Part shown: piece by piece, positions 2,814 to 18,407 of the stretch
How the letters are laid out: each line of letters begins with the position of its first letter
How positions within the stretch are numbered: position 1 is the stretch's first letter
Assembly: GCA_045863235.1 (NCBI GenBank)
Contig: BTUM01000072.1
Span: 1 to 40,835 of the forward strand
Direction: 5' to 3'
DNA length: 40,835 nt
Source: Candidatus Xenobia bacterium
GTDB lineage: Bacteria; Vulcanimicrobiota; Xenobia; Xenobiales; QWHO01
Made by a program: the position numbers and the translations under genes
Notes under the pieces: generated by a model
The model's database searches: none
What the model was told of the DNA's origin: nothing
The model's input: only the letters and a program-made list of their open reading frames with translations

Positions 2814-3037
2814 GAAACTCATTCCACTTCTGCCAACAGGCTTCCGCATTTGGTGCGTAGGCCTCCAGCATCTTCCCCGCCTTCTTCTTGGGGGTATCCT
2901 CTTCCGAGAGGAAGTCACCCGTCTCCAGGTCGATCCTGTAGTCTCCCCCGTCATACAGACAGTGAACATGGGGAGGAGGGTGATCATTCGGCCAATACGT
3001 GAAACACGTATGGGCCCTCTTCGCACACCTTCGCCAT
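2806..3037 (-). pseudogene. DUF4160-like small protein (putative toxin), one extra base near 3001-3004
   Basis: ATG 3037 behind a G-rich RBS gives MAKVCEEGPYVF; the motif TYWPNDHPPPHVHC...IDL...CWQKWNEFHG* continues in the next frame. Span is 232 nt (3n+1); no in-frame start for the downstream frame. Confidence 0.75.
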
Positions 3038-3052
3038 ATTTGCCCCCCCTGT

Positions 3053-3082
3053 ATCGTAGGCGATACTTGCCCGTTTCGTCAA
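3053..3082 (-). promoter_or_regulatory. Sigma70-type promoter of the DUF4160-like/HIRAN operon
   Basis: TTGACG-18 nt-TACGAT, ending 15 nt upstream of ATG 3037. Confidence 0.6.
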
Positions 3083-3477
3083 ATGCACTGATGCCCTGTC
3101 TCCTCAGGAGTCAGGAACGATTCTAGGGCATCCTGGAGGGCAAGCAGAGGGCAATTTCATATCTTCGCCTCGTCTATGAGGTTGCCGTGCCACGGAACCA
3201 AGCTCTCGTTGCAGACTGCCCGAACCGAACGCTACGCGTGCCTGTGGCGCCCTTATGGCAAAGGACGCAGGGTTGTGCCTACTTGCCGCCCCTGAACCAG
3301 ATGGAGATCATGTAGTCCCTTGTCCCCCAGCACCGAAACCCTCCGATCTTCGGAAACCCTGACAGGGTAACGCTTCTGTGCATTCTGGTCTGTGATAGTT
3401 TTGTGATAGTAGCTTTACGCCCCGATCGGCGGTTTTTCGCGATTTTTGGGGGACTAAGTGTAGATCTCTACGCAAAT

Positions 3478-3503: not shown

Positions 3504-3550
3504 TTGGTGGAGCCGCACGGATTCGAACCGAGGACCTCCTCCGTGCAAGG
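3504..3550. repeat. att core, left copy: 3' half of tRNA-Ala from the anticodon loop to CCA
   Basis: 47 bp identical to 18331-18377 (ttggtggagccgcacggattcgaaccgaggacctcctccgtgcaagg). Confidence 0.95.
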
Positions 3551-3943
3551 AAGATTCTTGGAGTGGCTTGAGGACTAGAAAATTGGCTGTTTTTGGCGTA
3601 ACAGCGCGCCCGATTGCAAACTGAAACGAGGACCGCGTTAGGCCAAGAACGGCCAGCTTTCCCCATCGACATCGGGCGAAAATCGGGCGGTTTCTGTAGA
3701 GGAAATTCCATCGCGAGATGCCGCCCATGGCTTGACAAATTCTCAAACTATGCCCCATGATAGAGGGTAGCATGGAAGCGGGAAACGAAGGGATGACCGA
3801 GGCTCAACGAGCCTGGCCATCCGCACAAGACCGAACTTGTTTTCGTGGTAGAGATGCTTCGGCGGGCACGCACGGGGATCCTCTCAAGAATTTCAAGTCC
3901 GGGGGTGGAACGCGGCCATGACTCCCAATTTGGTGAGGTAAAG

Positions 3944-4192
3944 ATGCCCCAAAAAAAAGGACCAAACCATATCCACGTCGTTCCAGACCCGGATGGCGGC
4001 TGGAACGCCGTTCGTGCCCACGCCGAGCGGGCGAGCCGGCACTTCGAGACGCAGGCCGAGACTGCCGAATGGGCGCGGGGCGCTCTAGGGCGCTCGGGCG
4101 GCGGTGAACTGCTGATCCACGGCGAGAACGGCCAGATCCGTCAGCGCGATACCGTTCCACCCGGGCACGACCCGCGCAGCATCCCCGGGTAA
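3944..4192 (+). CDS. DUF2188-family small protein
   Basis: HVVPDPDGGW...RAS.HFETQAE..E.AR...GELLIHGENGQIR.RDT..GHDPR..PG pattern; GAGGT RBS before ATG 3944. Confidence 0.85.
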   Translation: MPQKKGPNHIHVVPDPDGGWNAVRAHAERASRHFETQAETAEWARGALGRSGGGELLIHGENGQIRQRDTVPPGHDPRSIPG

Positions 4193-4261
4193 CCACCAGA
4201 CCACGGCCGAAGCCGGGAGCGTGCCCTCGGCGTCGGCCGTCACCACGAAAGGAGCAAAACT

Positions 4262-4552
4262 TTGACAACAAATGATACCTTCGACGAGCTGGCCGGGCGC
4301 ATAAAAGAGCTCATCGACGATTGCGACTTGGCGGTTACCAACAGGACCGGCGGCGCGCTTCCTGAGCTTGCTGGCTTCTACAACGATTTCTTGAGCCGGG
4401 CGCAAAGCATCTGCTCGGCGGTCGCTCGGGACTCACTTTTGAAGGAGTTTGCCGCAGAGGCTCTTACCGGCGATCTGGCCGATCACGTCCAGGCGCTAAG
4501 GGCCCGAGCGAATCAGTTGCTGACGGTCCTGTACCGCCACACTCCCTATTGA
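4262..4552 (+). CDS. Hypothetical helical protein, 96 aa
   Basis: AAAGGAG RBS before a TTG start; strong terminator follows. Confidence 0.7.
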   Translation: MTTNDTFDELAGRIKELIDDCDLAVTNRTGGALPELAGFYNDFLSRAQSICSAVARDSLLKEFAAEALTGDLADHVQALRARANQLLTVLYRHTPY

Positions 4553-4570
4553 GTGAGGGAAGCCCCTCGG

Positions 4571-4599
4571 GCCCCCCGGCCTTACCGGGGGGCTTTTTT
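4571..4599 (+). terminator. Intrinsic terminator
   Basis: GCCCCCCGG-CCTTA-CCGGGGGGC-TTTTTT. Confidence 0.85.
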
Positions 4600-4710
4600 G
4601 TTGACCATGTATGTTGAACCCGCGCAAACCATACCCAGCGCCTTCTGGCGACTCACGCAAGACCGGGCTAGAATCCGAGGGGTAACACCCCACGAAACGG
4701 AGGACCCCAA

Positions 4711-5292
4711 ATGGACGACCTGCGCGAAGAACTGGTCCAAGCTCTGGCAGGCATTGCCGCCGACAAGAAGCACCTGATCCGGCCAGGCTACTGTAAAGGC
4801 ATGAACCGCAGGACTGGAGAGCCATGCAAAAACCCCGCCAAAAAAGGCCTCGACTGTTGCGGCTTGCACAAAAAACAGGATCGGAAGTATCAGGCAAAAT
4901 ACCGCCAGGCCGAGCCCCGGAAGGCGCCTGCGCCTGCCCCAGTAGGCCCAGACGGGTTCACCCCGGCCGAGCGGAGGCGCTGGCTCACGATCCGGGCCCA
5001 GCTTTCCCCCATCGAACGCGCCCTGCTGGACGTGGCATGGGCTGCGGTCAGCCACTTCGACCCCCTGGGCCCCGTAACGGAGGCCTGGCTTGACGATGGC
5101 GAGGCCGGCCTTTCCCTCGCCGAGGGCTTTTGGGAGCAGCCCGAACCCGCCCGTCGCTGGAACCTCGCGGTGCTGGTGGGGCTGTGCTTTATCCCGGGCC
5201 CGGCAACCCAGGAGCGGCACCAGGAGCGGCACCAGCTGGCCCGCCAGTGGGCTGCGGCGGCGCTTGCCAGCCTCGCGGTGACCCGGCTATAG
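4711..5292 (+). CDS. Hypothetical protein with a C-x10-C-x10-C-x2-H putative zinc-binding motif (HGGxSTG/DUF5763-like)
   Basis: CKGMNRRTGEPCKNPAKKGLDCCGLH; GGAGG RBS. Confidence 0.7.
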   Translation: MDDLREELVQALAGIAADKKHLIRPGYCKGMNRRTGEPCKNPAKKGLDCCGLHKKQDRKYQAKYRQAEPRKAPAPAPVGPDGFTPAERRRWLTIRAQLSPIERALLDVAWAAVSHFDPLGPVTEAWLDDGEAGLSLAEGFWEQPEPARRWNLAVLVGLCFIPGPATQERHQERHQLARQWAAAALASLAVTRL

Positions 5293-5310
5293 CCCGACCA
5301 GAGGCGCCAA

Positions 5311-5335
5311 GACGGCCGGGAACTCCCCGGCCGTC
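5311..5335. terminator. Perfect hairpin between convergent genes
   Basis: GACGGCCGGG-AACTC-CCCGGCCGTC; no long U tract. Confidence 0.45.
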
Positions 5336-5336
5336 C

Positions 5337-5729
5337 TCATTTCCCGGCGTAAGCCTCCTGAAGTCCACGGGCCACGGCAGGCGCTACCATGCCCGGCACC
5401 TCGAGGCAGATGATGCTTTGCCCTCGCCCGAGGGCCGGCAGCTTGTAGGCGTCGAGAAAGGCCTGGATGCGGTCGCGTTGGGCATCATCGAGGGGGCCCC
5501 CGGGCTCGAAGTAGACCTGCACTTGGCGGCGGGGGAGCCTCGTAAGCCGGCAATAGCGCGGCCGAGCCGGGTCCTGGGCGCACCATGCCCAGAAACGGCG
5601 CAGAATCTCCTCTCGGCAGCCCGCAGAGAACCGCCACATTAGGAGGTAGCCGTCCCGCTTCGCGCTTTCGAGCAGGGCGATGTCCCCGGGGCCCGGCACG
5701 CCCCAGCCCGTGCGCAGCGAGGCGCTCAC
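5337..5729 (-). CDS. Hypothetical protein, 130 aa
   Basis: GTG 5729 overlaps the upstream TGA (GTGA coupling); in frame with ORF 5337..5825. Confidence 0.6.
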   Translation of the reverse strand: MSASLRTGWGVPGPGDIALLESAKRDGYLLMWRFSAGCREEILRRFWAWCAQDPARPRYCRLTRLPRRQVQVYFEPGGPLDDAQRDRIQAFLDAYKLPALGRGQSIICLEVPGMVAPAVARGLQEAYAGK

Positions 5730-6316
5730 GAGAGCACCGGCTCGGCGGCCTCGTCCAGGCCCAGGTCGGGAAGACCGGGCCCCGCGTTCAGCGCCGCGCT
5801 CAGCCCCGCCCGAAGCTCCCCACAAGCGATGTCACCCTCCGCCTCGGCTGTGAGACTGCTGACCCGCTTGTGGGCCGCGTCGACCAGCCCGGGAAAGGCA
5901 TCATACTGCCTGGCCCACAGGGCCTCTCGAGCCTCCTCTAGTAAAAGCCTCAGGTCACATTCCGCCCTGATAATGCGCTTCAGGAGCGCCCTCTGCCGCC
6001 ACCCGCTGGCCCCGGCCGTCAGCCGCGCACGGGTGTTGCCGAGCCCGTCCACATGGGCCTCAAGCTTTTCGACCAGGGCGGAATAAGGCTTTGCGGGGTC
6101 GGGCTCCATGAGCAGTTCGGGCAAAAACTCGTGGAAATCGGCCAGGAGGTGGGGGGCGTGGCGGGCCAGGAAGGCCTCGCCCCGGCGCTGGACCTCGCCC
6201 CGGAGCGCTTCGGGTTCAACGAACATGGCGAAGTCAACAGCTGTCTGGAGCGGGTCGAAACCAAGCTCGCGCAGGCGTTTGCCCAGTGCTATGGCCTCGT
6301 CAAGTCGATCAGTCAT
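5726..6316 (-). CDS. Hypothetical helical protein, 196 aa
   Basis: GAGGAGG RBS; protein-like composition. Confidence 0.75.
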   Translation of the reverse strand: MTDRLDEAIALGKRLRELGFDPLQTAVDFAMFVEPEALRGEVQRRGEAFLARHAPHLLADFHEFLPELLMEPDPAKPYSALVEKLEAHVDGLGNTRARLTAGASGWRQRALLKRIIRAECDLRLLLEEAREALWARQYDAFPGLVDAAHKRVSSLTAEAEGDIACGELRAGLSAALNAGPGLPDLGLDEAAEPVLS

Positions 6317-6463
6317 GTAGGGGTTCCTCCTCAGTTAGTCAGGGAAAAACGATAGCCACGCTGGCCGGGGCCCGGCTGGTGGCGGTTCTGTGGCGGGCTG
6401 AAAGGCGTGAAGGCGGCGGGCCAGGCCTGGACGTAGAGGCAGGGCTCGGGGTGGACGCGCAAG

Positions 6464-9400
6464 CTAGATGCTCCCTAGATTCCCACGCGGGCTCATGTTC
6501 GCGGCCGCGTCCTCAAACGAGGAGCCCCGGCCGTTGGCGGTGACCTCCCGTTTTTCCTCGCGGGCCATCAGCTTGCCGGTTTTCGGATCCACGCTTACCT
6601 GCACGCTCACGTCAACCTTGCTCTGAACCTGCACGGGAACCCGGGCGGCCCGGCTGGCAGCGGCAGCCAGGTCGGCTCCGCCCCCGAGGGCCGCGCCCTT
6701 CGAGGCCTTCGCCACCTCGCCCAGCCGCGAAGCCGATTCAAGCTGCGTCAGGCTTGTGTCGATACCAAAACTGCCCTGCCCGGCGCCGCGGTTGGCTTTC
6801 TTCTGTTGCTCGATGCGGGCCCGGGTGGCGCCGATGCCGAACTGCGCTGACTGGCCCTCGAGGAACTGCTCGAAGGTTTGGATCTCGCCCACGCCAGAAA
6901 GGCTTTCCTGTGCCTTCTGCTGGGCCTCAATCGCCTTCGTGGTTTCCTCGATGGTTTTGGTAGTCTCCTGGCGGGCGGCCTGAATTTCGGCCTGCACACG
7001 CTGCTCGATAAGCGCCTGCTGCTCGGCGCTCGAGGTAGCTGCCTTCTCGGCCTCGCCCCGGAGGCGGATTTCTTGCTCGGTCAGGGCCAGGCGCTCGAGC
7101 AGTTCCTGCTTGATCTGGCTGGCCACGTTCTTCCCCGCTTCAGCCTGCTCTTTCAGGGCCCGCAGATGCAAGTCCCGGATCTGCTTCGTCACGGCCAGTT
7201 CATCCTGGGCAACTTCTCGCTTTTGATCGGCTGTGGCCTGGATGAGGTCCTGCACTTCCTGCTCGCCCTGCTGCTCTAGACCCTGGACCTGCAGGCGGCC
7301 ATTCTCCACGGCCGCTGCCTTCGTGGCCGGATCCTGCGCCTCTTGAGCCGCGGCGTCGGCCTCCTTCTTGGCGGCTTGCACGGCCAGGGCGGTGCGTTCC
7401 TGAATGAGCTTCTTCTGCTGCTCAAACACGTCACGGCCCCGGGCGGCCTCTTTGTCCAGGCCCTCCAGGGCAACCCCGATCTGCTCCTGGCGCAGCTGGA
7501 GCTTTTCCTGCTCCATCTCGTTTTGCTCTTTGGCCCGGCGCAGGGTAGCGTCGTCAGCGGCCTTCCTGACCTCGGCCAGGCTATTCTCGCCCTTCTGCAG
7601 GATGGTCTGCACTTCGAGTTCGGCCTTCTCGCGAATCTGCGCCTGCAGGGCGGGATCAGCCTCGCCTTCGAGCTCTGCGTTTGCCCGGGCCCGCACCGCA
7701 TTCACCTCGAGCTGGGTGCGTCGCTGGATGGCGGCCTCCAACTGCTTCGCCACGTTCTTCCCTGCGGAAAGCTCTTTCTCTAGCGCTGTGATCTTTGCGT
7801 CCGCGAGCTTCTGGTTCGCGTCGAAAACCTGCTGCGTCCCGGCCAGCTCCTGCTTGCGCAGCTGCTCTTCCAGGCGCGCTATCTGGCTCTCGACCCGGCG
7901 GCGCTCGTCACCCTCCAGCCTATACTGTGCGGCCAGGGCCCCCAGCAGCTTGATTTTGTCCCGGATCGAGCGGTTGCTCAGCTCGATTTCGTGCAGTTCC
8001 TGGGACAGCGCTTCCTTGCGCTCTTTATCCGCGTCCAGGGCCTGTTGCGAGCCCGCCACGGCCGCGGAAGATGCGCTCTTCTGCGCGCCCTCCAGGCCGG
8101 CCAACTCCTTTTTCAGGCCCTGCGCATCCCGGATCTGAGCTTCGAGCTTACCCACCAGTGGCTCGTTCCCGGCCCGGCGAGCGGCCTCAAGCTGATCCTG
8201 CAGGCCCCCAATGACGTACACCAGGTCCTTTGAGGACTTGCCAGAGCGCTGCAGTTCGGCGGCGCTCTCCCGCAAGAGGTCGCCGTTTTCCCGGAGGGCC
8301 TTCGCCCGGCGCTCCTCAATCTCCAACAGGGCGCGGTCCGCGGCTTCCACGTCCTGCAGGATCTTCGTATACACCGCAAATGCCACGCCAGCGGCGATGG
8401 CGGCCGCGGCGATGGCAGCAAACCCTACCGTCAGCAAAGCTACCCCGGCCGACAGATCCACCGTGGCGACCGCCATGGCCACCTCAGCGGCCGCGAAGGC
8501 ATTCCCAGCCACCGCAGCCACGCCGGCCGCGCCACCCAACGCAGCGATACTGCTGGCCACGCTGGCCACGGCCGTAACCATACCGAGGGCGGCCGCCCCG
8601 AGCGCGAGCGTGCCCGCCGTCAATGTGGCTACCACAATCGTACCCGTTTTCACGGGCCCCGGCAGCGCATCAAACGCATCCACCATGCGCGTAGCAACCT
8701 GCACCAAGCCGGAGGCGGCCGGCAGGAACACGTTTCCGATGGTTACCCCGGCGCGCTCGAGCGCGGCGTTGAACTTGTCCAGGTTCGCCTGGAACGACTT
8801 CTGCTGCTGCGCCAGGGCCTTATCGGTGGCCCCGGCCGCGCTCTCCATGTTGCCCAGGATCCCGGCGAACCTTAGGCCGCCGTCCCCGGCCAGCCCGAGA
8901 GCCGCGTTCAGCCCGTTCACGTCGCCAAGAATCTGGCGCAGGGCAGTACTGTTCCCGCCAGTGGCCTTGATGACTTGATTCAGCGAGGCCACCAGACCCT
9001 GGTTCTTCAGGCTGGCCTGATTGATCTGCAGGCCGAACTTTTGCTGCATCTTGATCGCCTCGTTGGTGGGCGATCCCAGGGCTACGATGGCGGCTCGGAT
9101 GGAGGTAATCGCCTCGGGCGTCTTCACGCCCTTCTGGGTCAGAAGGGCAATGCTGGCGCCCAACTCCTCGAGCGACACCCCGTTCTGGGCAGCTATGGTA
9201 GCCACCGAACCGAAGCTCTGGGCCAGTTCCTCATAGGTGGTTTTGCCCTGGTCCACCGTGCGAAACAGGATGTCATTGACCCTCGCGGCGTCCGTAGCGC
9301 GCAGGCCATAGGCGGCCAGGCTGGACGTAAGCACATCGGCGGCCACCTTCGCGTCGGTCAGGCCGGCTTTCGCGCCCTTGATCGACTGGGCCAGGATCTC

Positions 9401-9847
9401 CTGGCTGTCGGCCGCGTCCGTGAACCCGGCAGACACGATGTCATAGGCGGCTGCGGCCGATTCCGCGGGCCCGACGCCCAAATTCAGCTCCTGGCCGAGC
9501 GTTCGTATGCGGTCCGAAAAAGCCGCGAAGTCAGACTCGGACAGCTTCGCCACCGCGTTGACGTTCCGCATCTCGGCCTCGAAGGCCACCGCAGCGGTCC
9601 CGGCGGCCGCGAAGGGGGCTACGATGCCCTCAGCCAGCCCGGCCAGTTGGCCGGACAGGCGGTCCAGGTTCATCCCCTGGAGGCCGTCTGCAATGCCCCC
9701 GAAGGCGCTTTTCCCAGACTTCTCCACCTTGGCAAAGTCCAGGTCCACGTCCCCGGCGAAGCGGGCCAGGGTCTGGCGCGCTCGGGTGAGCGTTGCTTCC
9801 CAGCCGCTGGCGTCGAGCGCCAGAATCGCTTCAAGTTTCTCGGCCAC
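6464..9847 (-). CDS. Phage tail tape measure protein, TP901 family (PhageMin_Tail core), 1127 aa
   Basis: AFEAEMRNVNAVA...GKTTYEELAQSFGSVATIAAQNGVSLEELGASIALLTQKG...EAITSIRAAI core, Ala-rich hydrophobic middle, long coiled-coil C-half; AGGAGG RBS before GTG 9847. Confidence 0.93.
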   Translation of the reverse strand: MAEKLEAILALDASGWEATLTRARQTLARFAGDVDLDFAKVEKSGKSAFGGIADGLQGMNLDRLSGQLAGLAEGIVAPFAAAGTAAVAFEAEMRNVNAVAKLSESDFAAFSDRIRTLGQELNLGVGPAESAAAAYDIVSAGFTDAADSQEILAQSIKGAKAGLTDAKVAADVLTSSLAAYGLRATDAARVNDILFRTVDQGKTTYEELAQSFGSVATIAAQNGVSLEELGASIALLTQKGVKTPEAITSIRAAIVALGSPTNEAIKMQQKFGLQINQASLKNQGLVASLNQVIKATGGNSTALRQILGDVNGLNAALGLAGDGGLRFAGILGNMESAAGATDKALAQQQKSFQANLDKFNAALERAGVTIGNVFLPAASGLVQVATRMVDAFDALPGPVKTGTIVVATLTAGTLALGAAALGMVTAVASVASSIAALGGAAGVAAVAGNAFAAAEVAMAVATVDLSAGVALLTVGFAAIAAAAIAAGVAFAVYTKILQDVEAADRALLEIEERRAKALRENGDLLRESAAELQRSGKSSKDLVYVIGGLQDQLEAARRAGNEPLVGKLEAQIRDAQGLKKELAGLEGAQKSASSAAVAGSQQALDADKERKEALSQELHEIELSNRSIRDKIKLLGALAAQYRLEGDERRRVESQIARLEEQLRKQELAGTQQVFDANQKLADAKITALEKELSAGKNVAKQLEAAIQRRTQLEVNAVRARANAELEGEADPALQAQIREKAELEVQTILQKGENSLAEVRKAADDATLRRAKEQNEMEQEKLQLRQEQIGVALEGLDKEAARGRDVFEQQKKLIQERTALAVQAAKKEADAAAQEAQDPATKAAAVENGRLQVQGLEQQGEQEVQDLIQATADQKREVAQDELAVTKQIRDLHLRALKEQAEAGKNVASQIKQELLERLALTEQEIRLRGEAEKAATSSAEQQALIEQRVQAEIQAARQETTKTIEETTKAIEAQQKAQESLSGVGEIQTFEQFLEGQSAQFGIGATRARIEQQKKANRGAGQGSFGIDTSLTQLESASRLGEVAKASKGAALGGGADLAAAASRAARVPVQVQSKVDVSVQVSVDPKTGKLMAREEKREVTANGRGSSFEDAAANMSPRGNLGSI

Positions 9848-10094
9848 GGCGCCCCTCCTGGTCACTGGCCTCGCGGGCCTGGTTCAGGCTGTGCTGTAGC
9901 TCGCGGGCTTGCTGGCGGGAAAGCCCGTCAACCACCACGCCCCGGCCGTCCCACATGACGCACCCGGCGCCAAAAGCACGGAGCGCCTCCATGACGCACT
10001 GGCGTGCCCGCCAGCAGGTATCCCAGTAAATCCCCGGCTCAAGCCGGCAAGCAACGGCCCAACCTCGGCCCTGTTGGCGCGACAAAACGATCAT
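9831..10094 (-). CDS. Hypothetical protein, 87 aa
   Basis: ATGA coupling at 10094; its 3' end contains the tape measure RBS and start. Confidence 0.6.
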   Translation of the reverse strand: MIVLSRQQGRGWAVACRLEPGIYWDTCWRARQCVMEALRAFGAGCVMWDGRGVVVDGLSRQQARELQHSLNQAREASDQEGRRGRET

Positions 10095-10198
10095 CGGGGG
10101 CCTGCTGCCCGCGCGTAGCGAACCGGCCGCGGTCTGGTGGGCCACGGCAAGACGATGAGGTGGAAACCCAAGAAACGAAAGCTCAGGCTGAGGCTCAT
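10091..10198 (-). CDS. Small hydrophobic/basic peptide, 35 aa (MSLSLSFRFLGFHLIVLPWPTRPRPVRYARAAGPR)
   Basis: ATGA overlaps at both ends fill the operon gap exactly; below the ORF-track size cut-off. Confidence 0.55.
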   Translation of the reverse strand: MSLSLSFRFLGFHLIVLPWPTRPRPVRYARAAGPR

Positions 10199-10677
10199 GC
10201 GAGGCACCGCCCCCGCTTTACCCACTCGACCAGGGCGCCAGCCTCAAGCATCGCCTCCACGGCGGCCTGGACCTTCTCCGCGAAATCGGCCCGCCCGCAG
10301 AAGGGCTCGAAGTTGCCCCAGCACGGCTGGCCCGAAACGTCGCGAATTCGGCCCATACGCTCCCACCGGTCAGCCTCGGCGCAGTAGGCAAAGAGCGCTC
10401 GGTCATCCCCCAGCCAAGCCTCGATTCGCGGCCCATAGCCGGCGCCGCTGTGGTCGAGCATGGCCACCTGCACACCGAGGTTCAGGGGCCGCAATTCGGC
10501 CCGAAGCTGGGCTAGAACCCCGCGGTTGATGGCGTCCACTACCTGCCCGGCTTGGGAAAAGGCCTCGGCCGAGCGGCGCTCCCTTTCATCGAGCTGCGCC
10601 TGCCTGTCCGTGTTCTCCGCGCTGCGCTTGTGCATGGCCGCCACCAGGCGGTCCAAAAGGGTCAGTTTTTCACTCAT
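10195..10677 (-). CDS. Hypothetical protein, 160 aa, N-terminal coiled coil
   Basis: GGAGGA RBS and ATGA overlap at 10677. Confidence 0.75.
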   Translation of the reverse strand: MSEKLTLLDRLVAAMHKRSAENTDRQAQLDERERRSAEAFSQAGQVVDAINRGVLAQLRAELRPLNLGVQVAMLDHSGAGYGPRIEAWLGDDRALFAYCAEADRWERMGRIRDVSGQPCWGNFEPFCGRADFAEKVQAAVEAMLEAGALVEWVKRGRCLA

Positions 10678-11243
10678 ACGTCCTCCGAAAACTTGGCGGC
10701 CAGGTCCTGGCCGAACTTCAGCCACTGCATCCGCTCCGAAATCGCGCCCAGGAGCCCACCACAGAAGATAACCGGGCCATCTTGGTGCTGGCTCAGGGGT
10801 TGGAACCCATAGGGTGCCTCGGCGCGGAGAGGCTCAAGACGGCGCCCCCCGGCCTCGATCGGCCTGGTAGGATCAACGCCATACTGGCGGGCCAGAGAGC
10901 CATAAGCGGCCCGGGCGTTAAGCAATCGCCCTTCCAGCGCCTGGAGGCGCTTGAAAAGGGGCTCGATGGCCAGCAGGTGCGCGTCGAGCTGGCGCAGCGC
11001 CACGTCCCTGTCAGCCCGGGCAGCGTCATGCTCTGCCCTGCGCTCGTCCATCATCTCCAGGATCGCTGCGTTTCGCGCTTCCTCCAGCTCTCGCTGGAGT
11101 TCTGCCTCTTTCAGGGCGGCGGCCTCGAACTGCTCCTCGGCCTGGCTGCCCTGGGCACGGGCGGCCTCTATCTCGGCCAGCACCTCGTTGACCCGGGCCA
11201 CCACCGCGGAAACGTCGGTTTTCTTGCTACGCTTGCCGAACAT
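10674..11243 (-). CDS. Coiled-coil protein, 189 aa
   Basis: TGATG overlap with the protease gene; ~110 aa of E/A/R/L heptad-like sequence. Confidence 0.8.
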   Translation of the reverse strand: MFGKRSKKTDVSAVVARVNEVLAEIEAARAQGSQAEEQFEAAALKEAELQRELEEARNAAILEMMDERRAEHDAARADRDVALRQLDAHLLAIEPLFKRLQALEGRLLNARAAYGSLARQYGVDPTRPIEAGGRRLEPLRAEAPYGFQPLSQHQDGPVIFCGGLLGAISERMQWLKFGQDLAAKFSEDV

Positions 11244-12379
11244 CAGGCGGCCTGCCGCAGAACCGTGGCGTCAGCCTGCCGCAGAATCGTGGCGTCAGGG
11301 TTGCTGGGCACGGTCACGATGCTTATTTCGCGGAGCCGAACCTCGGTGAAGACGACCCAGGCCTCATCGTTCCTGAGCGCCGCCTGCGCGAAGGCCGGGA
11401 GCGTATCGAAGGCTGGATCGCCCAACTGGACCGCGGCTCGAACCTCGAACCCGTGGCTTACTGCTTGTAGGAAGCCACCCTTGACCAGCTCCCAAACCTG
11501 CTTGGCCAGGGGGTTTTCCTCGCAGGCGAACCGCACGCGCGCCATCAGTCCGGCATAGGGGTCCACCCAGACCTGCTCGGCCCGGCCGATCACGACGGCG
11601 GGGCTTTCAGAGCGCCGCGCGTGTTGGTAGAGTACGACTGGGTTCTTGCGGTACTGTTCGAGCCCGTTAGTCCAAGCCCCGGGTAGGAACAGGGTGCCAT
11701 GCCGGTCTACGCTGGGTGGCGAGACGAGCAGTTCGGCCTCGAACTTCGCCTCGTCCAGGCCCCGCACCCCGCCCGAAAGGCTGCGCTCATCGCTGCTGGG
11801 AACGTCCCGGCGGCGGGAAGTGGCGCATACAGGGCGGCCACAGAGGACTGCCTCAGCGGCCCGCTCGAGGTCGGCCGGCCCCATGCGCAAGAACTCGTCC
11901 AGGCTGACCTGGCGCAGAACTTCCCCTGCTACAAAGGCATTCACAGCAGCCTGGAGGTGGCCAGGCACGGCGTCCAGCTCCTCGCGCATGGCTGCCACCC
12001 CTTCTCGCAGGTCAGCCCGGCGCTGGGCAGTACTGCGCAGGTGCAGGCCAAACCCGGCCCCGAAGGCCCGAACGATCTCCCGCCAGGTTGCGTCATCGCC
12101 CCGGCCGGCCCAGCGAGCTTTTGGCCCGGCGTGGCGTGAATAGACGGCGTCCAGATAGAGAGCACCTTCCTGGCGAAAGGCCTCGCTGAAACCCACCCCG
12201 GCCGAGGCCAAAACGGAGGTTACCGCCTCGAGCGCATCGCTGGAGGGGGCCAGGCTGAAAGGCTCCAGCTTCCCTCGCTCCTGGCGAATGCGGGCCTCGA
12301 CAATGCCGATCCTGTCGCGAGTCTCCACCACGTTGGGCTCGGGCTTCAGCCCCTCGAAGAGGCGGGCAATTTCTCTCAA
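11243..12379 (-). CDS. HK97-family phage prohead protease (C-terminal half) fused to an unknown ~190-aa N-terminal domain
   Basis: VDRHGTLFLPGAW...YRKNPVVLYQH...IGRA...GLMARVRF...AKQVWELVKGGFLQAVSHGF...LREISIVTVPSNPDA; AGGAG RBS before TTG. Confidence 0.88.
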   Translation of the reverse strand: MREIARLFEGLKPEPNVVETRDRIGIVEARIRQERGKLEPFSLAPSSDALEAVTSVLASAGVGFSEAFRQEGALYLDAVYSRHAGPKARWAGRGDDATWREIVRAFGAGFGLHLRSTAQRRADLREGVAAMREELDAVPGHLQAAVNAFVAGEVLRQVSLDEFLRMGPADLERAAEAVLCGRPVCATSRRRDVPSSDERSLSGGVRGLDEAKFEAELLVSPPSVDRHGTLFLPGAWTNGLEQYRKNPVVLYQHARRSESPAVVIGRAEQVWVDPYAGLMARVRFACEENPLAKQVWELVKGGFLQAVSHGFEVRAAVQLGDPAFDTLPAFAQAALRNDEAWVVFTEVRLREISIVTVPSNPDATILRQADATVLRQAA

Positions 12380-12396
12380 GTTTTCAGGCTCCTAGT

Positions 12397-12447
12397 AAAA
12401 GTGGCGGGGGAGGCCGGCCCGGCCGAAGTGGGGCCGGCATCCCCGCC
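12397..12447 (-). terminator. Long GC hairpin plus short U run between the sigma-like gene and the structural operon
   Basis: GGCGGGGAUGCCGGCCC...GGGCCGGCCUCCCCCCGCC-ACUUUU, ending just upstream of the protease RBS. Confidence 0.55.
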
Positions 12448-12487
12448 GAGAAGTAAGGAGGTAACCTCTCTACCCCTACACGTCAGA

Positions 12488-13396
12488 TCAGGCGTTTCGG
12501 GACACCCACGAGTCATAATCTGGAAACTTTTTCCGAAACGCCACCAGGACACGGTTCCAGGCCCGTTTTGCTCGCTCTGTAGCAAGCTCGTCAACGCCCG
12601 CCTCCTTGCCCGCCTCGGCCCAGGGAAAGCCCTGGATGTGCAGGGCTACAACCTGGCGGGCTTCAGGCTTGAGGCGAGCGAAAAGGCCCTGCAGAAGCTC
12701 GAGATGCAGCGGCGCTTCTTCTACCCCCGGGAGGGCGGAGTAAAGCGAGGACGGAACCTGAAGCGGCGGGATACTGTCGCCGTCGTCGCCGTCGTCGAGT
12801 GGGGCGTCGAGCGCCCAAACATGGCCCCGCCCACCAAGCCGCGTTGCCTCGGCTGGCCTCCACCGCCGGCCCCGGTTATCCAGGGCCCGCTGAAGCCACC
12901 TCGCGGCCGCGTCGACTGTCGCCGCCCGATCCCACCAGGCGCCGCCTTCGAGCAATTCTTGGGCCACCTCCAGCCGCGCGGCAGGCCCCTCCGAGAGGGA
13001 GCGAAGGGCCACCGAGCCTCCCGCACGCAGGGTTTCCCGGCGTTGTTGCTCCCAGTCGTCGCTAAACAGTTCGCGGGGCTCCACCGCAACACCGGCAAGG
13101 TAGCCAGGGCCTCGGGCCAGCCGTTGCCTGCAAAAGTCGGCGGTCAGGTCCAGGTTCCACCCCGCCCGAATGCAGCTCTGCACCTCGGCGAGGAAAACCG
13201 AAACTTCCCGGGCCCCGGCCAGGACTTCGGGCGCGCTGAGCCTGGCGGCGGCGAACTGCTGGCCCTGTTCCCACCTGGAGGCGAGGCCAGCAAGCTGGGC
13301 GGCGGCGGCCACGAGTTCCTCGTCGGCCCCTGCCTCGGTGGCGGCGGGTTCGGGCGCTGGGCTGGCCGGCGTGAGCGAGGGAATGAGAGTGGGCAT
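12488..13396 (-). CDS. Sigma70 region 3.2/4-like transcription regulator
   Basis: ALDAPLDDGDDGDS, then LFARLKPEARQVVALHIQGFPWAEAGKEAGV (region-4-like HTH); AAGGAGG RBS. Confidence 0.65.
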   Translation of the reverse strand: MPTLIPSLTPASPAPEPAATEAGADEELVAAAAQLAGLASRWEQGQQFAAARLSAPEVLAGAREVSVFLAEVQSCIRAGWNLDLTADFCRQRLARGPGYLAGVAVEPRELFSDDWEQQRRETLRAGGSVALRSLSEGPAARLEVAQELLEGGAWWDRAATVDAAARWLQRALDNRGRRWRPAEATRLGGRGHVWALDAPLDDGDDGDSIPPLQVPSSLYSALPGVEEAPLHLELLQGLFARLKPEARQVVALHIQGFPWAEAGKEAGVDELATERAKRAWNRVLVAFRKKFPDYDSWVSRNA

Positions 13397-13581
13397 GGAA
13401 GAGCCTCCTTTTTTTTAACGTGAGTTTTTACCCAAAAAATCGGGGCCGGAGTGGGGGCCGAGGACGCCCCGCGCCCCAGGGCTACCTTTTTTTTAGATGT
13501 GCCCCTCTGGGCCCATCCGCGAAGGGAGCCTTCGCGGCCCCCAGGGCTGCGCTGCCCTATAGGAGCCCCCCCCTGGGGTCC

Positions 13582-14015
13582 CCGGCCCCTGTCACGCCGG
13601 CCCCTGTCACGCAGATCGGGAGGGGTCCACTACCCCTGCACCGCCACGGGTGCCACGGGTGACCAGGCCGACCACCGTGCCACGGGTGACCAGGCCGACC
13701 ACCTGGAAGCCTCCTTGCGACCACCTGGAAGCCTCCTTGCGGGGGTTGAGGGGTCCACGCGGGGGTTACCCGCATAACCCCCCGCATCAAAAAACGGCGT
13801 GGTAACAGGGCCTGCGGGGGTTGCGGGGGTTTGCGGGGGTTTTTTGCTGCCCTGGCTCTTCATGTGCGCGTGGCACCCATGGTGTTCTCGTGTATGCGCG
13901 TAGGGTAAAAATAATACCCGCAAATACCCGCAACCCCCGCAGAGCTAGTATTCACGCCGTTTTTCGCTGCGGGGGTTCTGCGGGGGTTTCAGGTTTTTGA
14001 GGGGCAACCCCCCGC
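13582..14015. repeat. Putative replication origin: GCGGGGGTT iterons plus 15-, 27- and 22-bp tandem duplications
   Basis: Iterons at 13739, 13759, 13814, 13823, 13833, 13969, 13980; inverted at 13932 with degenerate inverted copies near 13776, 13913, 13923, 14006; directly downstream of the primase gene. Confidence 0.75.
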
Positions 14016-16483
14016 ACCTCTTCCAGTCGAAAGAGGTTTAGCTTGAGGTGGTTGTCCTTTCCGGCTGCGACTATTCGGAGGCCGTCAAGGACGCGCCCGG
14101 CCTGTTTGCCCAGCAATCGCCCCAGGCTGGCCGTCGGGTTCTTTTCGCTGAGGCTCGACAGGGTAACACGCTTTCCGTCCACCAGGCCGAAGAGTGCATT
14201 GGCCGTGACGGGGTCGGAGTCAAACCGCTCCTTCCAGGCGTGCAAGAAAGCGATCAGTTCGTCTGTCGAGGGGTCTTGCGAGCCCAGCCGGAAACGGGTG
14301 GCCAGAAAGTCGTTTCTCTCGATTAGCTCGAGCAGCCCGCCCACTACCTGGCTCCACTCCTCGAAGCCTCCCAGGGGGGCGAGGCGTGAGCCCGGCCTGC
14401 CTCTACTGAGCCAGGCCGCAATCCAGGTCAGCACGGCATGGACAATCTGGCCCCGGGTGGACTTGACGTGTAGCTTTAGCTGTGGGTGGCGAAACCCGGT
14501 CCGCTCCTCCGGGTGCTCCATCTCGGGGTCTATGCAGATCGGCACCGTGCGGCGCCGTATGTCTGGCGCTATAGCCACGTTGTTCCCGGTGAAAAGCCAG
14601 AGCCCGAGGTTGGGCACCGTCAGGTTCTCGCTGACGCCCAACTTCCGGTCGGTGTAGGTGGGCCAAGAGGTCAGCATAGCGGCAAGAACCGGGTGGTCGA
14701 TTGGGTGCTCCTGGTTGTCGCAGAGGTTCACGGCGTGGCACTCCGCCAGGGTCCCCAGCAGTTGCTTCGTCATCTCTTCTGAATTTGGCTTGAAGGCGGT
14801 GAGGTTGCCGGCCCGCTCATACCCTGTCGGGACGATGATGAGAATCTCGGCCAGCAGGGTCTTCCCGGCGCCTGGCCCCGGGGCGTTGATGTAGTGGAGA
14901 GGTAACGGGCCCTTGATCATTGGGCGCACGAAGGGCACGGCAATGGCGCCCAGTGCAGCCGTTCGAGACCCCGGCGTCCAGGGAAAATCCTCGAAAATGT
15001 CCTCAATCACGGCGATGGCTGCGGCAAGCTCTTCGTCGGTTGGGTTGGCCGGTATCGGAGCCAGGTTAAGGCCAGGATCGGGATGGTAGTAGATTCCCGT
15101 GCCGTCGTCATAGCCTGGCCGGTCCAAAATTCGCCCCGGGGGAACCGCAACCGGGACGCCACTCACCTGCACCAGGCGCGGCAGCCCCCACTCGCTTGAA
15201 GGCCGGGCGAGAATATGCTCGGTCAGCCACCTCGGCGGCGGCACTATTTCGATTCCCTTCTTCCCCTTGGTTAGGGGGACCATGGCAGTAGCGATTTCGC
15301 TACTGAGGCCCGCGGCGTCAAGATGCCGCACGAAGCAGTACCCGGGGCGGCCGTCATCTTCTTCAACGCGCACGATGCGGCGATTCGAGCAGAACAACCG
15401 CCCGGCCGAGGGCCCGCGCCGCAGAGCATCGAGCGCGTCCCGCGCTACATCCTGCACCGGGCGGTTGTTTACCAGAACCCTGGGGAGGTTTGCGGGCGCC
15501 CGAAGCATGCCCTCGAAGTCGGCCACGCTGACGGTTTCGGGGCGCCCCTCGGCGTGGAGCAGCTCGTCGATCCCCTTCTGGCCCTCCCAGGTTTCGATCA
15601 TCACTTGGCAGTGCTCCCCGTAGGCGTTCGCGGCGTCCAAGAGGTTGCGCAGCACCTTCGGGTTCGAGCGGAAGTCGGCGTCAAACGCCAGAAGCACGCG
15701 CGTGCACCCCAACTCGGTCAGAAGCGGCAGGGCCTGCTGCCAGGCGTCCACCCCGGGAACCGAGATGGTCAGGGTACCGCTCAGTTCGGTAGCCAGGTCA
15801 GCCTTCAGTTCGCCCTCGGTGACCCGGAGTGCACGGTCCGGCCCCAGCTGGGTGCCGAGAGGGACATGGGCCTGACGGCCAGGACTTGCCCCCTCATACT
15901 TCTTGCTGGATACGTAGGTGTACCGGTTTGGCCCGGCCTGGTTGGACCGGACCTTCAGGGCAACGATGCGGCCCGCGGCGTCCCGGCAGGGAATCAGGAT
16001 CCCCTGCGCCCCGGCAAGCGACCAGAACTTGCTGTCCTTGCCGGTGGCCAGGTAGAGGCCGGGCACCTGGGCGCAGACATGCTCGCCGAAGGCCTCGATA
16101 AGCTTCCGCGCGGCCTGCGCGCGCTCACGGGGCATGGTGCGGTATTCGCGGCGCTCGATCCCCTCAGGAGAATGGCCCCGGGCCAGGAGCCAATCGCGGT
16201 GCTCCTGGGCCAGGCCCAACTCCTCGAGGAGCCGGCGGTATACCCGGTCCAGGACCTGCGGGGGTGCGGTTTCCTTGCGCGGTTTCTCGGCCGGCTCGGG
16301 GCGTTCGCGCGGGCGCTCGTTCGCGAACGTGATCCAGTATGTAGCCCCGTCCTTGTCGGTGCGCTCCTTGCCCTCCGGCCAGGGCGCCTTCATGCAGATA
16401 GCTGCGTCCTCGCTGCGGCTGCACCACTTGGTGGATCCGCAGTTGACGCAGGGGGCGGCGGGGGTGACGTCGGTCCAGCTCAT
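13952..16483 (-). CDS. Primase-helicase-like replication protein: N-terminal Zn finger, DUF3854/TOPRIM-like domain, C-terminal P-loop ATPase
   Basis: PCVNCGSTKWC; VTEGELKAD...VPGV..W...LAFDAD...KGIDELL; Walker A GPGAGKT and downstream LCDN; ATGA coupling with xis. Confidence 0.85.
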   Translation of the reverse strand: MSWTDVTPAAPCVNCGSTKWCSRSEDAAICMKAPWPEGKERTDKDGATYWITFANERPRERPEPAEKPRKETAPPQVLDRVYRRLLEELGLAQEHRDWLLARGHSPEGIERREYRTMPRERAQAARKLIEAFGEHVCAQVPGLYLATGKDSKFWSLAGAQGILIPCRDAAGRIVALKVRSNQAGPNRYTYVSSKKYEGASPGRQAHVPLGTQLGPDRALRVTEGELKADLATELSGTLTISVPGVDAWQQALPLLTELGCTRVLLAFDADFRSNPKVLRNLLDAANAYGEHCQVMIETWEGQKGIDELLHAEGRPETVSVADFEGMLRAPANLPRVLVNNRPVQDVARDALDALRRGPSAGRLFCSNRRIVRVEEDDGRPGYCFVRHLDAAGLSSEIATAMVPLTKGKKGIEIVPPPRWLTEHILARPSSEWGLPRLVQVSGVPVAVPPGRILDRPGYDDGTGIYYHPDPGLNLAPIPANPTDEELAAAIAVIEDIFEDFPWTPGSRTAALGAIAVPFVRPMIKGPLPLHYINAPGPGAGKTLLAEILIIVPTGYERAGNLTAFKPNSEEMTKQLLGTLAECHAVNLCDNQEHPIDHPVLAAMLTSWPTYTDRKLGVSENLTVPNLGLWLFTGNNVAIAPDIRRRTVPICIDPEMEHPEERTGFRHPQLKLHVKSTRGQIVHAVLTWIAAWLSRGRPGSRLAPLGGFEEWSQVVGGLLELIERNDFLATRFRLGSQDPSTDELIAFLHAWKERFDSDPVTANALFGLVDGKRVTLSSLSEKNPTASLGRLLGKQAGRVLDGLRIVAAGKDNHLKLNLFRLEEVRGVAPQKPETPAEPPQRKTA

Positions 16484-16734
16484 GCGGCCCGCCCGGCTCG
16501 CTTACGCGCGCCTGCCACTCTGGCGCCAGCATCCTCCAGGACCTTGAGCCAGGCCTCGATTGCCGACCGCCTGACCCGGATGTGGGCGCGCGGGCACCTC
16601 TCCTTGTCCGCGAGGCACCGCAGTTCGCCCTGAGCGATAGCGCGCCGTACGTGACGCGTGCTGCGCTTGACCAGCTGAGCCACCTCCTCCAGGGTATAGA
16701 CCGGATCATTGAGCATTGGGATAGCTCCATCCAT
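16480..16734 (-). CDS. Excisionase-family (HTH_17) DNA-binding protein
   Basis: YTLEEVAQLVKRSTRHVRRAIAQGEL...IRVRRSAIEAWL; GGAGGT RBS; divergent from the integrase. Confidence 0.85.
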   Translation of the reverse strand: MDGAIPMLNDPVYTLEEVAQLVKRSTRHVRRAIAQGELRCLADKERCPRAHIRVRRSAIEAWLKVLEDAGARVAGARKRAGRAA

Positions 16735-16780
16735 GAAAAATTGACCTCCGTTCTTATTTGTCCAGGTAACGGGCAATGTT

Positions 16781-16883
16781 GGCCACTCGTGGCCCCCGAT
16801 TGCTAAATATCTTCAATTTTGGCCGTGGCCAAAACTACCGAAACAGTACCGAAACAACTTTGGCCAGAAAAAAACTTTCGGTA
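16781..16883. promoter_or_regulatory. Operator-like repeats in the xis/int divergent region
   Basis: GGCCAC-TC-GTGGCC (16781), TTTTGGCC-GT-GGCCAAAA (16817), TACCGAAACA x2 at 11-bp spacing (16836, 16847), inverted TTTCGGTA (16876). Confidence 0.55.
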
Positions 16884-18239
16884 GGATGGCCATGGCCGTC
16901 GCCGAACTCGTAAGGGCGCCATTTGCGCAATCCCAAAACTGCCAGGAGGTCGGAATCATGGCGACGAGCAGCCGACAAGGCCCGAGAACCCTTAAGTCGG
17001 GCGAGAACCGGGGGATTTTCTGCAAAACCCTGAAGGACGGCCGTAAGGTTTGGTGGATTCGCTACGTCGGTGGGGACGGGAAGGAACGCCAGGAGAAGGC
17101 CGGCTTCAGCAAGGAGGCAGCGAGGGATCTTCGCAATATGCGCAAGACGGAGGTTCTGGAGGGCCGCTGGCGGCCCCCGGGGCTTCCCGAGGCGCCAACC
17201 ATCACGCAGGTAGTGGAGCGCTACGCGGAAAGCCGGAAGGCGCACGTATCAGAGAAGTCACGGGGAGAGGAGCAGCGATACCAGGAATACCGGGCTTTAC
17301 CCCGTCCTCGTAGCGACGTTTCGTTACCCACTCCCCGACAACGGCCGGGGTCAGTTCGTCGGCCCTGACGGGGCCGAAGGTAGCCTTCCAGTATTTAAAG
17401 CCCGGCACCATCATGCGCGCCCTAAACCACCTGCGGGCCCTGCTCAACTCCGCTCTCGAGGATGAATTCTTCGTGCCGACGCGCTCGGGCGAACCTAACC
17501 CCGTCACGGCTTACCTGACCAAGCAGCGCCGCCAGCGCGGCAAGGAGTCGGTCTTGAAGGTGAATGACCAGCGCAAGCGCTACCTGACGGAAGCAGAGTT
17601 TAGGCGCCTCCGGGACTACATGGCGCCAGGGGACTTCGCGGTAGTGGAGTTGGCGATCCTGACCGGCCTGCGCTCGAGCGAAATTTTCGAGTTACGGCGC
17701 CAAGATGTTGACTTACCCGCTTCCGTTCTCACCATTCCGAAGGGGAAGAGCGGGCGCGTCCACCACGTTCGGCTGGCGGGCCGGGCCGTAGAGATACTGC
17801 GCGATGCCATGGCCCAGCACGGGGGGGAGCTGATCTTTACCTGCGAGTTGGAGGCTACCGGCTTCGGGCCGCGTGGCTCCCACTCCCCAGGGGAGTTTCG
17901 CAAGGCTTCGAGCCTCTCCGTAAAGCACGCGTTCAAGAACCGCACGCCGCGGATGACCGCCAACTGGTTCAAGCGGCATCGTTTTCGGGCGGCGCTGAAG
18001 GCGCTTGGCATCGAGAACCTGCGCTTCCATGACCTTCGCCATACTTGCGCCAGCTGGTTGGTCCAGCAAGGCGAGACGATCCAGGAGGTCAGCCGTATCC
18101 TGGGGCACTCTACGACCCGGATGTCCGAGCGCTACGCCCACCTGAACGACCACAGCCAGCAGCGCGCGGTATCCCGGCTTGAGGCCAAGATGGCCAGCAT
18201 CCCCGGTGCGTCCCACGCCGGCCCGGAAGTAGTCCTGGA

Positions 18240-18275
18240 ATCGGGCGAAAATCGGGCGAATGGCGAAATCGGGCG
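18240..18275. repeat. Putative integrase arm-type sites (ATCGGGCG)
   Basis: Copies at 18240, 18251, 18268; same motif at the other end (3671, 3682; inverted 3607). Confidence 0.7.
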
Positions 18276-18301
18276 CCCGAAAGCGAGCCCGACCAGGAAG
18301 C

Positions 18302-18328
18302 AAAAAACCCCGCCGAAGCAGGGTTTTT
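18302..18328 (-). terminator. Terminator of the tRNA operon, carried by the element
   Basis: AAAAACCCUGC-UUCG-GCGGGGUUUUUU. Confidence 0.8.
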
Positions 18329-18331
18329 CTT

Positions 18332-18407
18332 TGGTGGAGCCGCACGGATTCGAACCGAGGACCTCCTCCGTGCAAGGGAGGCGCTCTCCCAGCTGAGCTA
18401 CGGCCCC
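18332..18407 (-). tRNA. tRNA-Ala(UGC)
   Basis: GGGGCCGTAGCTCAGCTGGGAGAGCG...CT-TGC-AC...TTCGAAT...CGGCTCCACCA; G3-U70 pair; encoded CCA. Confidence 0.97.

Follow-up and report, generated by a model that had tools for sequence, protein, structure and literature searches.

Introduction

In the literature considered here, a tape measure protein (TMP) gene has been described in satellites lacking a capsid gene, namely the PLEs (elements resembling phage-inducible chromosomal islands) of Vibrio cholerae (PMC12987554) and the SUSP1 (F5) satellites of Escherichia coli (bioRxiv 10.64898/2026.10.15.759431), as well as in elements with capsid genes, namely the EPIPs of Mycolicibacterium aichiense (PMC12822802) and putative satellites of E. 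coli (PMC10448857). Here, we report the analysis of 40,835 nucleotides from an uncultured Candidatus Xenobia bacterium living in sludge (contig BTUM01000072.1; the whole stretch is hereafter the window), in which a 14.8-kb island located in a tRNA gene, the C72 element, encodes a TMP and an HK97-type prohead protease without any recognizable capsid, portal, terminase or tail-tube gene. On the basis of this analysis, we consider it likely that the element is an integrative satellite of a siphophage, supplying its own tail core as PLEs do.

Like the C72 element, PLEs are integrated, lack a capsid gene and possess their own tmp. With ICP1 as helper, they encode tmp and tac, which fall into two exchangeable groups, and give rise to chimeric tails (PMC12987554). 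Indeed, the satellite TMP replaces the one of the helper, and tmp deletions lower transduction by 96-99.9% (PMC12987554, section 8). So far, PLEs and their myophage are the sole case in which tail manipulation by a satellite has been demonstrated, and the benefit it brings has found no explanation. In contrast to the element, PLEs exploit a lytic myophage, PLE11 has a baseplate hub and Rta in addition, the PLE TMP is about 20% identical to the helper one (versus 94.6% for the presumed helper here), and no prohead protease is mentioned in the passages of PMC12987554 considered here. The PLE core families capR, repA, nixI and lidI did not turn up in our Pfam, PHROGs and NCBIfam scans, which included no search with PLE profiles. 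The SUSP1 (F5) satellites are likewise att-flanked and carry a tape measure gene without capsid or packaging marker; they combine the TMP with a baseplate protein, depend on an obligately lytic helper, and the main text describing them never uses the word "protease". In the C72 element, the TMP is present and the capsid absent, no baseplate match was obtained and three small open reading frames (ORFs) have no assignment. EPIPs, of about 11 kb, also have a TMP, with a temperate helper and altered tails; they differ by a small terminase subunit (TerS), a head-tail adaptor and stopper, a scaffold, a capsid-annotated gene and a serine integrase, with no protease listed (PMC12822802). The integrase of the C72 element is of the tyrosine type, and TerS, adaptor or stopper and capsid-annotated genes were undetected.

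With cf-PICIs (phage-inducible chromosomal islands which form capsids), the element shares a layout of integrase, helix-turn-helix (HTH) regulator and primase, as well as a prohead serine protease; cf-PICIs carry in addition major capsid, portal, large terminase and head-tail connector genes (PMC10085698), none of which was found in C72, and some carry tmp (PMC12987554, Extended Data Fig. 10 legend). The E. coli putative satellites with capsid and TMP similarly encode a major capsid protein (PMC10448857), of which no counterpart was found in C72. Regarding the PICI model of SatelliteFinder, its core of integrase, HTH regulator (HTH_17, without a named AlpA profile) and primase is present, while the TMP breaks the rule that no tail gene be found (PMC10085698); a small terminase or capsid-morphogenesis gene was not detected in C72, and TerS occurs in the sister element C67. 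P4-like satellites resemble the element by a tRNA-linked integrase and a primase-ATPase (PMC10085698), whereas P4 has neither TMP nor protease, and delta, epsilon and alpA in the P4 order had no PHROG or Pfam match in C72. In the literature searched, we found no description of an integrative satellite with a protease and a TMP but no capsid, although elements of this kind may be present in Extended Data Fig. 10 of PMC12987554. An earlier note on this DNA had proposed a distinct satellite type: its satellite-like and capsid-less character stands, while capsid-less satellites with a TMP were already described (PLEs, SUSP1/F5), which leaves the combination of protease, TMP and siphophage as the only new part.

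An Integrative Island Without Detectable Capsid, Portal or Terminase Genes

The window belongs to a genome of 8.36 Mb, 97.6% complete (G000), whose other contigs are designated C1, C30, C38 and C67. Related genomes are G046, G054, G058, G068, G070, G074, G080, G096, G098 and G104 (Gxxx:Cyy being a contig therein), X1, X5 and X10 are sequencing runs with element-like contigs, and P0002 and P0014 are related proteins. The features are listed in Table 1.

The att-to-att spacing is 14,827 bp. As announced in the earlier note, both ends carry att repeats and matching arm-like motifs: the exact core repeat matches the 3' end of a tRNA-Ala(TGC) gene (18332-18407), and the 19-bp word, at 3671 and 18240, has two copies in the whole genome, one per element end. 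The same tRNA-Ala site is unoccupied in G046, which belongs to the same genus, and contains a different island in G054. The order previously given, verified in the sequence, is integrase/excisionase, primase-ATPase, inverted-repeat region, which the earlier note had labeled as ori, sigma-like gene, protease, four ORFs of 189, 160, 35 and 87 aa, and TMP; from protease to TMP, the genes are coupled via TGATG/ATGA overlaps, the last junction overlapping by 17 nt. The element is thus an att-bounded integrative element having its own integrase, interrupted in C72, and a replication gene.

This interruption, an internal inversion, had escaped the earlier note. A related intact integrase aligns in three pieces, residues 99-134 being antisense; the inverted tract, of approximately 100 bp, has 14 extra (duplicated) bases at its ends, the whole segment extending over 17286-17405. 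A 3,250-bp contig of X1 contains 106 bases versus 120 in the window, with no strand change, and hence matches an uninverted allele without the duplicated bases. Since the truncated C-terminal integrase product is on record from an NCBI source only, while the nine other proteins looked up are also in Logan, the inversion may be specific to this assembly. Unless an integrase is supplied in trans, the C72 copy is probably immobilized.

For the gene content, 15 ORFs were scanned against Pfam and PHROGs, three further small ORFs against PHROGs, and 12 ORFs plus four long antisense ORFs against NCBIfam. The TMP and prohead protease were recovered, and none of these ORFs matched a capsid, portal, terminase or tail-tube family, in agreement with the initial reading; no tail tip gene was detected in the element either, and the gene set of an autonomous virion is missing. 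When the whole genome was searched, capsid, portal and large terminase returned one match each, all on C1, and phrog_29 returned none. Contigs from all four runs compared (of 21 listed, representing four studies) cover 27-30 of 30 bins, mostly at 85-99% identity and none spanning the element. In X10, single contigs bridge 9876-11478, 11483-13251 and 13245-15559 without inserted gene, and single contigs join primase to sigma-like gene to protease, and protease to small genes, with no extra genes.

One could argue that the element forms a capsid too diverged to be detected or that the locus is a chimeric misassembly. Structure prediction covered two element ORFs, with low pLDDT for protease residues 1-200, so that neither the 302-aa ORF nor the protease extension has a resolved structure, and the inversion is seen in this assembly only. 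However, just four plausible genes exceed 250 aa, three of which are otherwise assigned while the fourth (302 aa) has a C-terminal HTH signal, which leaves little room for a hidden capsid gene; the protease extension is predicted all-helical, no ORF proved to be a capsid detectable by profile or fold searches, and the junctions are reproduced by independent contigs. Either version of this explanation appears highly improbable.

The Protease and Its Coiled-Coil Neighbor

The protease matches PF04586 (E=2.2e-10) and phrog_80 (E=1.3e-21) over residues about 207-370 only, and its TIGR01543 score (56.2) is slightly under the cut-off of 59. Residues H253, S308 and E351 are invariant in all seven aligned proteases and are presumed to have the catalytic roles of their HK97 gp4 counterparts. 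The structure model matches T4 gp21 (E=4e-5) and, as judged from sequence and model, the protein is an HK97-type (S78) protease with an assemblin-like fold and conserved His, Ser and Glu. Such enzymes normally digest the scaffold domain within the prohead (PMC12749128). The C72 enzyme lacks the C-terminal tail that is usual for the family. Towards its opposite end, a helical appendage of about 55 aa is common to the C72 and C38 proteases (1/2000 shuffles reach its score) but was not found in any of the three phage-type proteases tested. It may be that this satellite-specific appendage has retargeted the protease. The two island proteases are 37% identical, and the C72 enzyme has at most 35% identity to those of named phages. 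In the protease tree, C72 groups with P0002 and the placement of C38 is not resolved; a single origin of both is therefore not established by the tree.

The adjacent coiled-coil protein occupies the position where a capsid gene would be, and its similarity between C72 and C38 is above 2000 of 2000 shuffles. A 50%-cluster search with it returned itself only. This protein, of about 190 aa, was placed near P4 Psu by a language model (Atlas score 0.88, 176/256 features), which is sub-threshold. Identification as Psu or Sid was not confirmed: no Pfam match was obtained, PF07455 had no match in the genome, and three fold searches with a two-sequence model retrieved generic coiled coils.

A Tape Measure Protein Within an Exchangeable Cassette

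The TMP matches PF10145 (E=1.5e-30) and TIGR01760 (E=6.5e-47), is 94.6% identical to P0014 (1127 versus 1129 aa) and shares 33% identity with the C38 TMP over the C-terminal 660 aa. In lambda, the TMP fixes tail length and its C-terminus is located in the tail tip (PMC10721106). The cassette of G104:C287 contains a G/GT-like chaperone pair, a TMP which is 72% identical to the one of C38 with a tip nearly identical to that of the window, and the downstream gene of the window. Similarity to the element ends at 9876 and 6237 in X10 and X5, on either side of the TMP. For homologues of three proteins, namely the coiled-coil protein, that of the 160-aa ORF and the G104 chaperone, the longest contig measures 5,143 bp in each case, which is the length of X10 record 8 and from which we infer that a variant exists with the same backbone but a chaperone and a different TMP. 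While PLEs have their own tmp with tac, the C72 copy has the TMP only, a TAC-like gene being present in G104 and in the X10 variant. At the level of coding sequences, the element genes are under purifying selection: dN/dS is 0.25 when the C38 TMP is compared with that of G104 and, of the 24 substitutions which fall in element genes among the 40 rows listed, 18 are synonymous.

Related Islands in the Order

A TMP alignment had matches in 11 of 40 genomes of the order, including the genome itself, and 15 TMP loci were inspected. Seven lie in full phage modules, as judged by gene order, BLAST and inspection (C1, G068, G096, G070, G080 and two in G058), and five in att-bounded islands of 13.2-18.3 kb without detected capsid gene (C72, C38, C67, G054:C25 and G074:C69). 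Regarding the others, G104 and G098 are on contigs too short to class, and G046 is a remnant with a partial capsid gene.

The C38 island shows the order protease, coiled-coil protein, small genes and TMP of C72 with a different replicon; the 160-aa ORF of C72 has no detectable relation to the C38 gene in the equivalent position. A protein identical to the C38 TMP occurs on a 14,251-bp Logan contig, which is the att-to-att length; this contig may be the excised form or merely reflect a break at the repeats. The C67 island encodes TerS (phrog_51, E=2e-12), a phrog_976 protease (E=8.6e-16), a resolvase, a HicB-like gene pair, and two chaperone-like genes flanking a TMP which resembles those of G070-type phages. 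A prohead protease is thus present in three of the five islands; as the enzyme belongs to the S78 family in C72 and C38 but to the unrelated phrog_976 in C67, two or more phage lineages must have contributed to the association of protease and TMP without capsid. Every island retains a replication gene, and at least three different tRNA genes are occupied. The compact synteny is shared by independent elements, and contigs of four studies maintain the gene order.

A GTDB scan for relatives yielded G104 only. Metagenome scans recovered two distant contigs, both with capsid genes. L084, a 16.7-kb IMG/VR contig with a distant protease match, is cf-PICI-like (integrase, primase, portal, protease, capsid and terminase) and has no tail genes.

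A Candidate Helper and a Possible Packaging Site

A co-resident siphoviral prophage, as the earlier note suggested looking for, exists: on C1 (153165-215260), two elements lie in tandem at a tRNA-Phe gene. One is a 54-kb siphophage-type prophage encoding capsid, portal, terminase and major tail proteins together with a TMP of 1004 aa, the other an 8-kb island with integrase, excisionase and primase, whose replication genes resemble those of C38. As a donor or helper, this prophage is a poor match and was set aside, its TMP being 23% identical over about 245 aa and its protease 24%, with a tip not above shuffles and no G run before the terminase; it is probably not the helper. For P0014 as well as for P0002, the latter an ordinary protease whose core is 56% identical to that of C72, the longest contig measures 44,745 bp. 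Ten other element proteins were looked up, and none has a 90% member on a contig of this length; a search with the G104 chaperone gave no link to it. Going by the matching contig sizes, this contig is probably a full phage sharing only the TMP closely with the element, and a phage of its kind probably the helper.

G runs may mark phage genome ends. A run of seven or more G precedes the terminase region in five of seven full phages (not in C1 and G070). In C72, C38 and G054, such a run occurs in the non-coding DNA ahead of the late module, and in G104:C199 it lies at the end, against a background of 12 in 197 host intergenic regions; in C67, G runs are on the opposite strand. Around the C72 run, a segment of 100 bp has 89% identity to G104:C199, where it lies behind a different replication gene.

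These data also bear on whether the island is a deleted or decaying prophage, i.e., a siphophage which lost its terminase, portal, capsid, neck, tube and tip genes and whose remnants persist for a while. The near-identity of the TMP to a protein on a probable phage contig, the inactivated integrase of this assembly and a protease preceding the TMP as in a phage late operon would all fit such a scenario, for which a genuine-looking example exists in the same genus: G046:C192 (about 58000-63500) is a scrambled remnant with a TMP fragment, a phrog_976 protease, a decoration gene, a partial capsid gene and no att found. However, at least three clean deletions would be needed, and would have to recur across five elements that differ in integrase, tRNA site and replicon; the gaps are filled by unrelated, translationally coupled genes, and the order is maintained in four studies, with purifying selection. 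Moreover, the protease core diverges from P0002 and, since the TMP alone is closely shared while 10 of 10 other proteins are not, gene capture fits better than deletion. Derivation from a full-length prophage hence finds an echo in the TMP alone, and decay seems improbable.

Proposed Life Cycle and Weighing of the Evidence

If the C72 element is a siphophage satellite, its helper would be a phage with a long non-contractile tail and an HK97-type head, whose growth would trigger excision and replication of the satellite. The helper terminase would package satellite DNA from the G-run motif into helper heads, and the satellite TMP, with its own G/GT chaperone in some variants, would replace the helper TMP, leading to chimeric tails comparable to those of PLEs, while the conserved C-terminal tip would dock on the tail tip of the helper. 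Conservation of the tip, the existence of chaperone variants and the lack of tube and tip genes are in keeping with the logic of TMP replacement by PLEs. Least certain is the step in which the protease and the coiled-coil protein would gain control of head maturation or divert it, or cleave an assembly protein of the helper.

A defense-first island is another possible explanation: TMP and protease would serve as dominant-negative or superinfection-blocking decoys spoiling phage assembly or injection, and the island would seldom or never be packaged. Interference with tail assembly is a known defense (Rta, PMC12987554), and this explanation would account for a protease without C-terminal tail, a PADLOC candidate among the cargo and the lack of a detected TerS in C72, C38, G054 and G074. 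Nevertheless, a full-length TMP with a conserved tip, the G/GT chaperone of variants and the TerS of C67 point to productive assembly; in addition, every island has a replication gene, and at least three different tRNA genes are occupied. A purely defensive role appears unlikely.

Several observations weigh against a siphophage satellite. The helper is deduced solely from matching contig sizes, and the TMP, 94.6% identical to and 2 aa shorter than that of the presumed helper, is not expected to change tail length, so that the effect on tails formerly envisaged is unlikely for the C72 allele and the benefit of a second copy unclear. The protease, undetected in two of five islands, is not essential to the type, and the coiled-coil family occurs in one of 401 genomes of a phylum sample, which is the genome itself. 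G074 has no G7 run, and the search windows for G runs were of our own choice. With its integrase broken in C72 and its TMP split into two ORFs in G074, the type includes copies that are decaying. Finally, no excised circle, attP junction or particle was seen, the data looked at in this respect being the contigs of four runs, and no close relative came out of IMG/VR and JGI metagenome scans, for which the TMP, the TMP alignment, the protease and the non-coding motif served as queries.

A siphophage satellite would offer a second independent setting for tail manipulation, with a non-contractile helper, three islands in one genome, natural TMP swaps on an otherwise constant backbone, and a prohead protease retained where there is no capsid gene. 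If this protease is active on helper proteins, it would represent a new satellite route to the takeover of virion assembly. As current satellite finders forbid tail genes, such elements are discarded and probably filed as decayed prophages. Going further, one may tentatively envision an undescribed class of siphophage satellites, having arisen repeatedly, which associates a captured, appendage-retargeted protease with an exchangeable TMP/chaperone cassette; the protease would cleave or hijack a protein serving helper assembly (helper TMP or a scaffold domain), heads and tails would mature around satellite DNA and TMP, and cassette swaps would set which helper can be exploited. We regard this broader proposal as possible rather than probable.

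Other Features of the Element and Its Surroundings

Table 1. Coordinates of the features of the C72 element (window positions) and of the related islands.
Feature	Position	Strand	Remarks
att core, distal copy (tRNA-Ala 3' end)	3504..3550	.	47-bp exact repeat
arm-like motif, distal	3671..3689	+	19-bp word
cargo: DUF2188 / PADLOC candidate PDC-S16	3944..4192	+	PF09954 E=1.4e-19; PDC-S16 E=7.5e-21
cargo ORF, 96 aa	4262..4552	+	sole match Ocr, weak, E=0.02, below cut-off
193-aa ORF, Cys-rich motif	4711..5292	+	48% over 42 aa to C67:35389-36009 (far end of C67 element)
130-aa ORF	5337..5729	-	no family match
196-aa ORF downstream of TMP	5726..6316	-	also after TMP in G104:C287
tape measure protein, 1127 aa	6464..9847	-	TP901-type N-terminal domain, hydrophobic stretch ~400-480
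87-aa coupled ORF	9831..10094	-	unassigned
35-aa coupled ORF	10091..10198	-	skipped in one X1 contig (joint 10097-10194)
160-aa coupled ORF	10195..10677	-	Atlas neighbors all hypothetical
189-aa coiled-coil protein, candidate scaffold-like factor	10674..11243	-	directly behind protease; homologue in same position in C38
HK97-type prohead protease	11243..12379	-	protease domain at residues ~205-355, 200-aa N-terminal extension, no C-terminal tail
302-aa ORF, candidate late activator	12488..13396	-	weak sigma region-4 HTH, PF08281 E=0.013
conserved non-coding motif with G8 run, candidate packaging site	13489..13589	-	89% to G104:C199
67-bp inverted repeat pair and short repeats, candidate origin	13779..13975	.	
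primase-ATPase, 843 aa	13952..16483	-	PF12965, phrog_10537, phrog_19930
excisionase-like HTH_17	16480..16734	-	PF12728 E=4.5e-10
tyrosine integrase, disrupted by internal inversion (about 17291-17395)	16886..18396	+	Pfam/PHROGs matches
arm-like motif, proximal	18240..18258	+	19-bp word
att core inside tRNA-Ala	18331..18377	.	47-bp exact repeat
C38 island	G000:C38 1-14300		14.2 kb, tRNA-Thr, 16-bp att core, two integrases (one per end)
C67 island	G000:C67 18693-37109		18.3 kb, tRNA-Trp
G054:C25 island	G054:C25		13.2 kb, same tRNA-Ala site as C72, no protease detected
G074:C69 island	G074:C69		17.7 kb, TMP split in two ORFs, no protease detected

The sigma-like label of the 302-aa ORF is weak, its PF08281 match being below the cut-off, and the HTH signal is at the C-terminus. 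The sequence comparison with X1 suggests that the 35-aa ORF is probably dispensable. A second small inversion, of 44 bp (about 6357-6400), lies in a hairpin-like region after the TMP, with the opposite orientation in G104 and X1. Elsewhere in the genome, C30 (2768-14504) contains an 11.7-kb att-bounded island at a tRNA-Lys gene, with an integrase and cargo and no TMP match. Just outside the att site, the window has a low-GC stretch (1950-3400) with an HTH-HIRAN gene (PADLOC PDC-M03B-like), hardly covered in the four runs, which is perhaps the remnant of another island. Finally, a 33-bp tandem repeat occupies positions 1-217, at the contig start.

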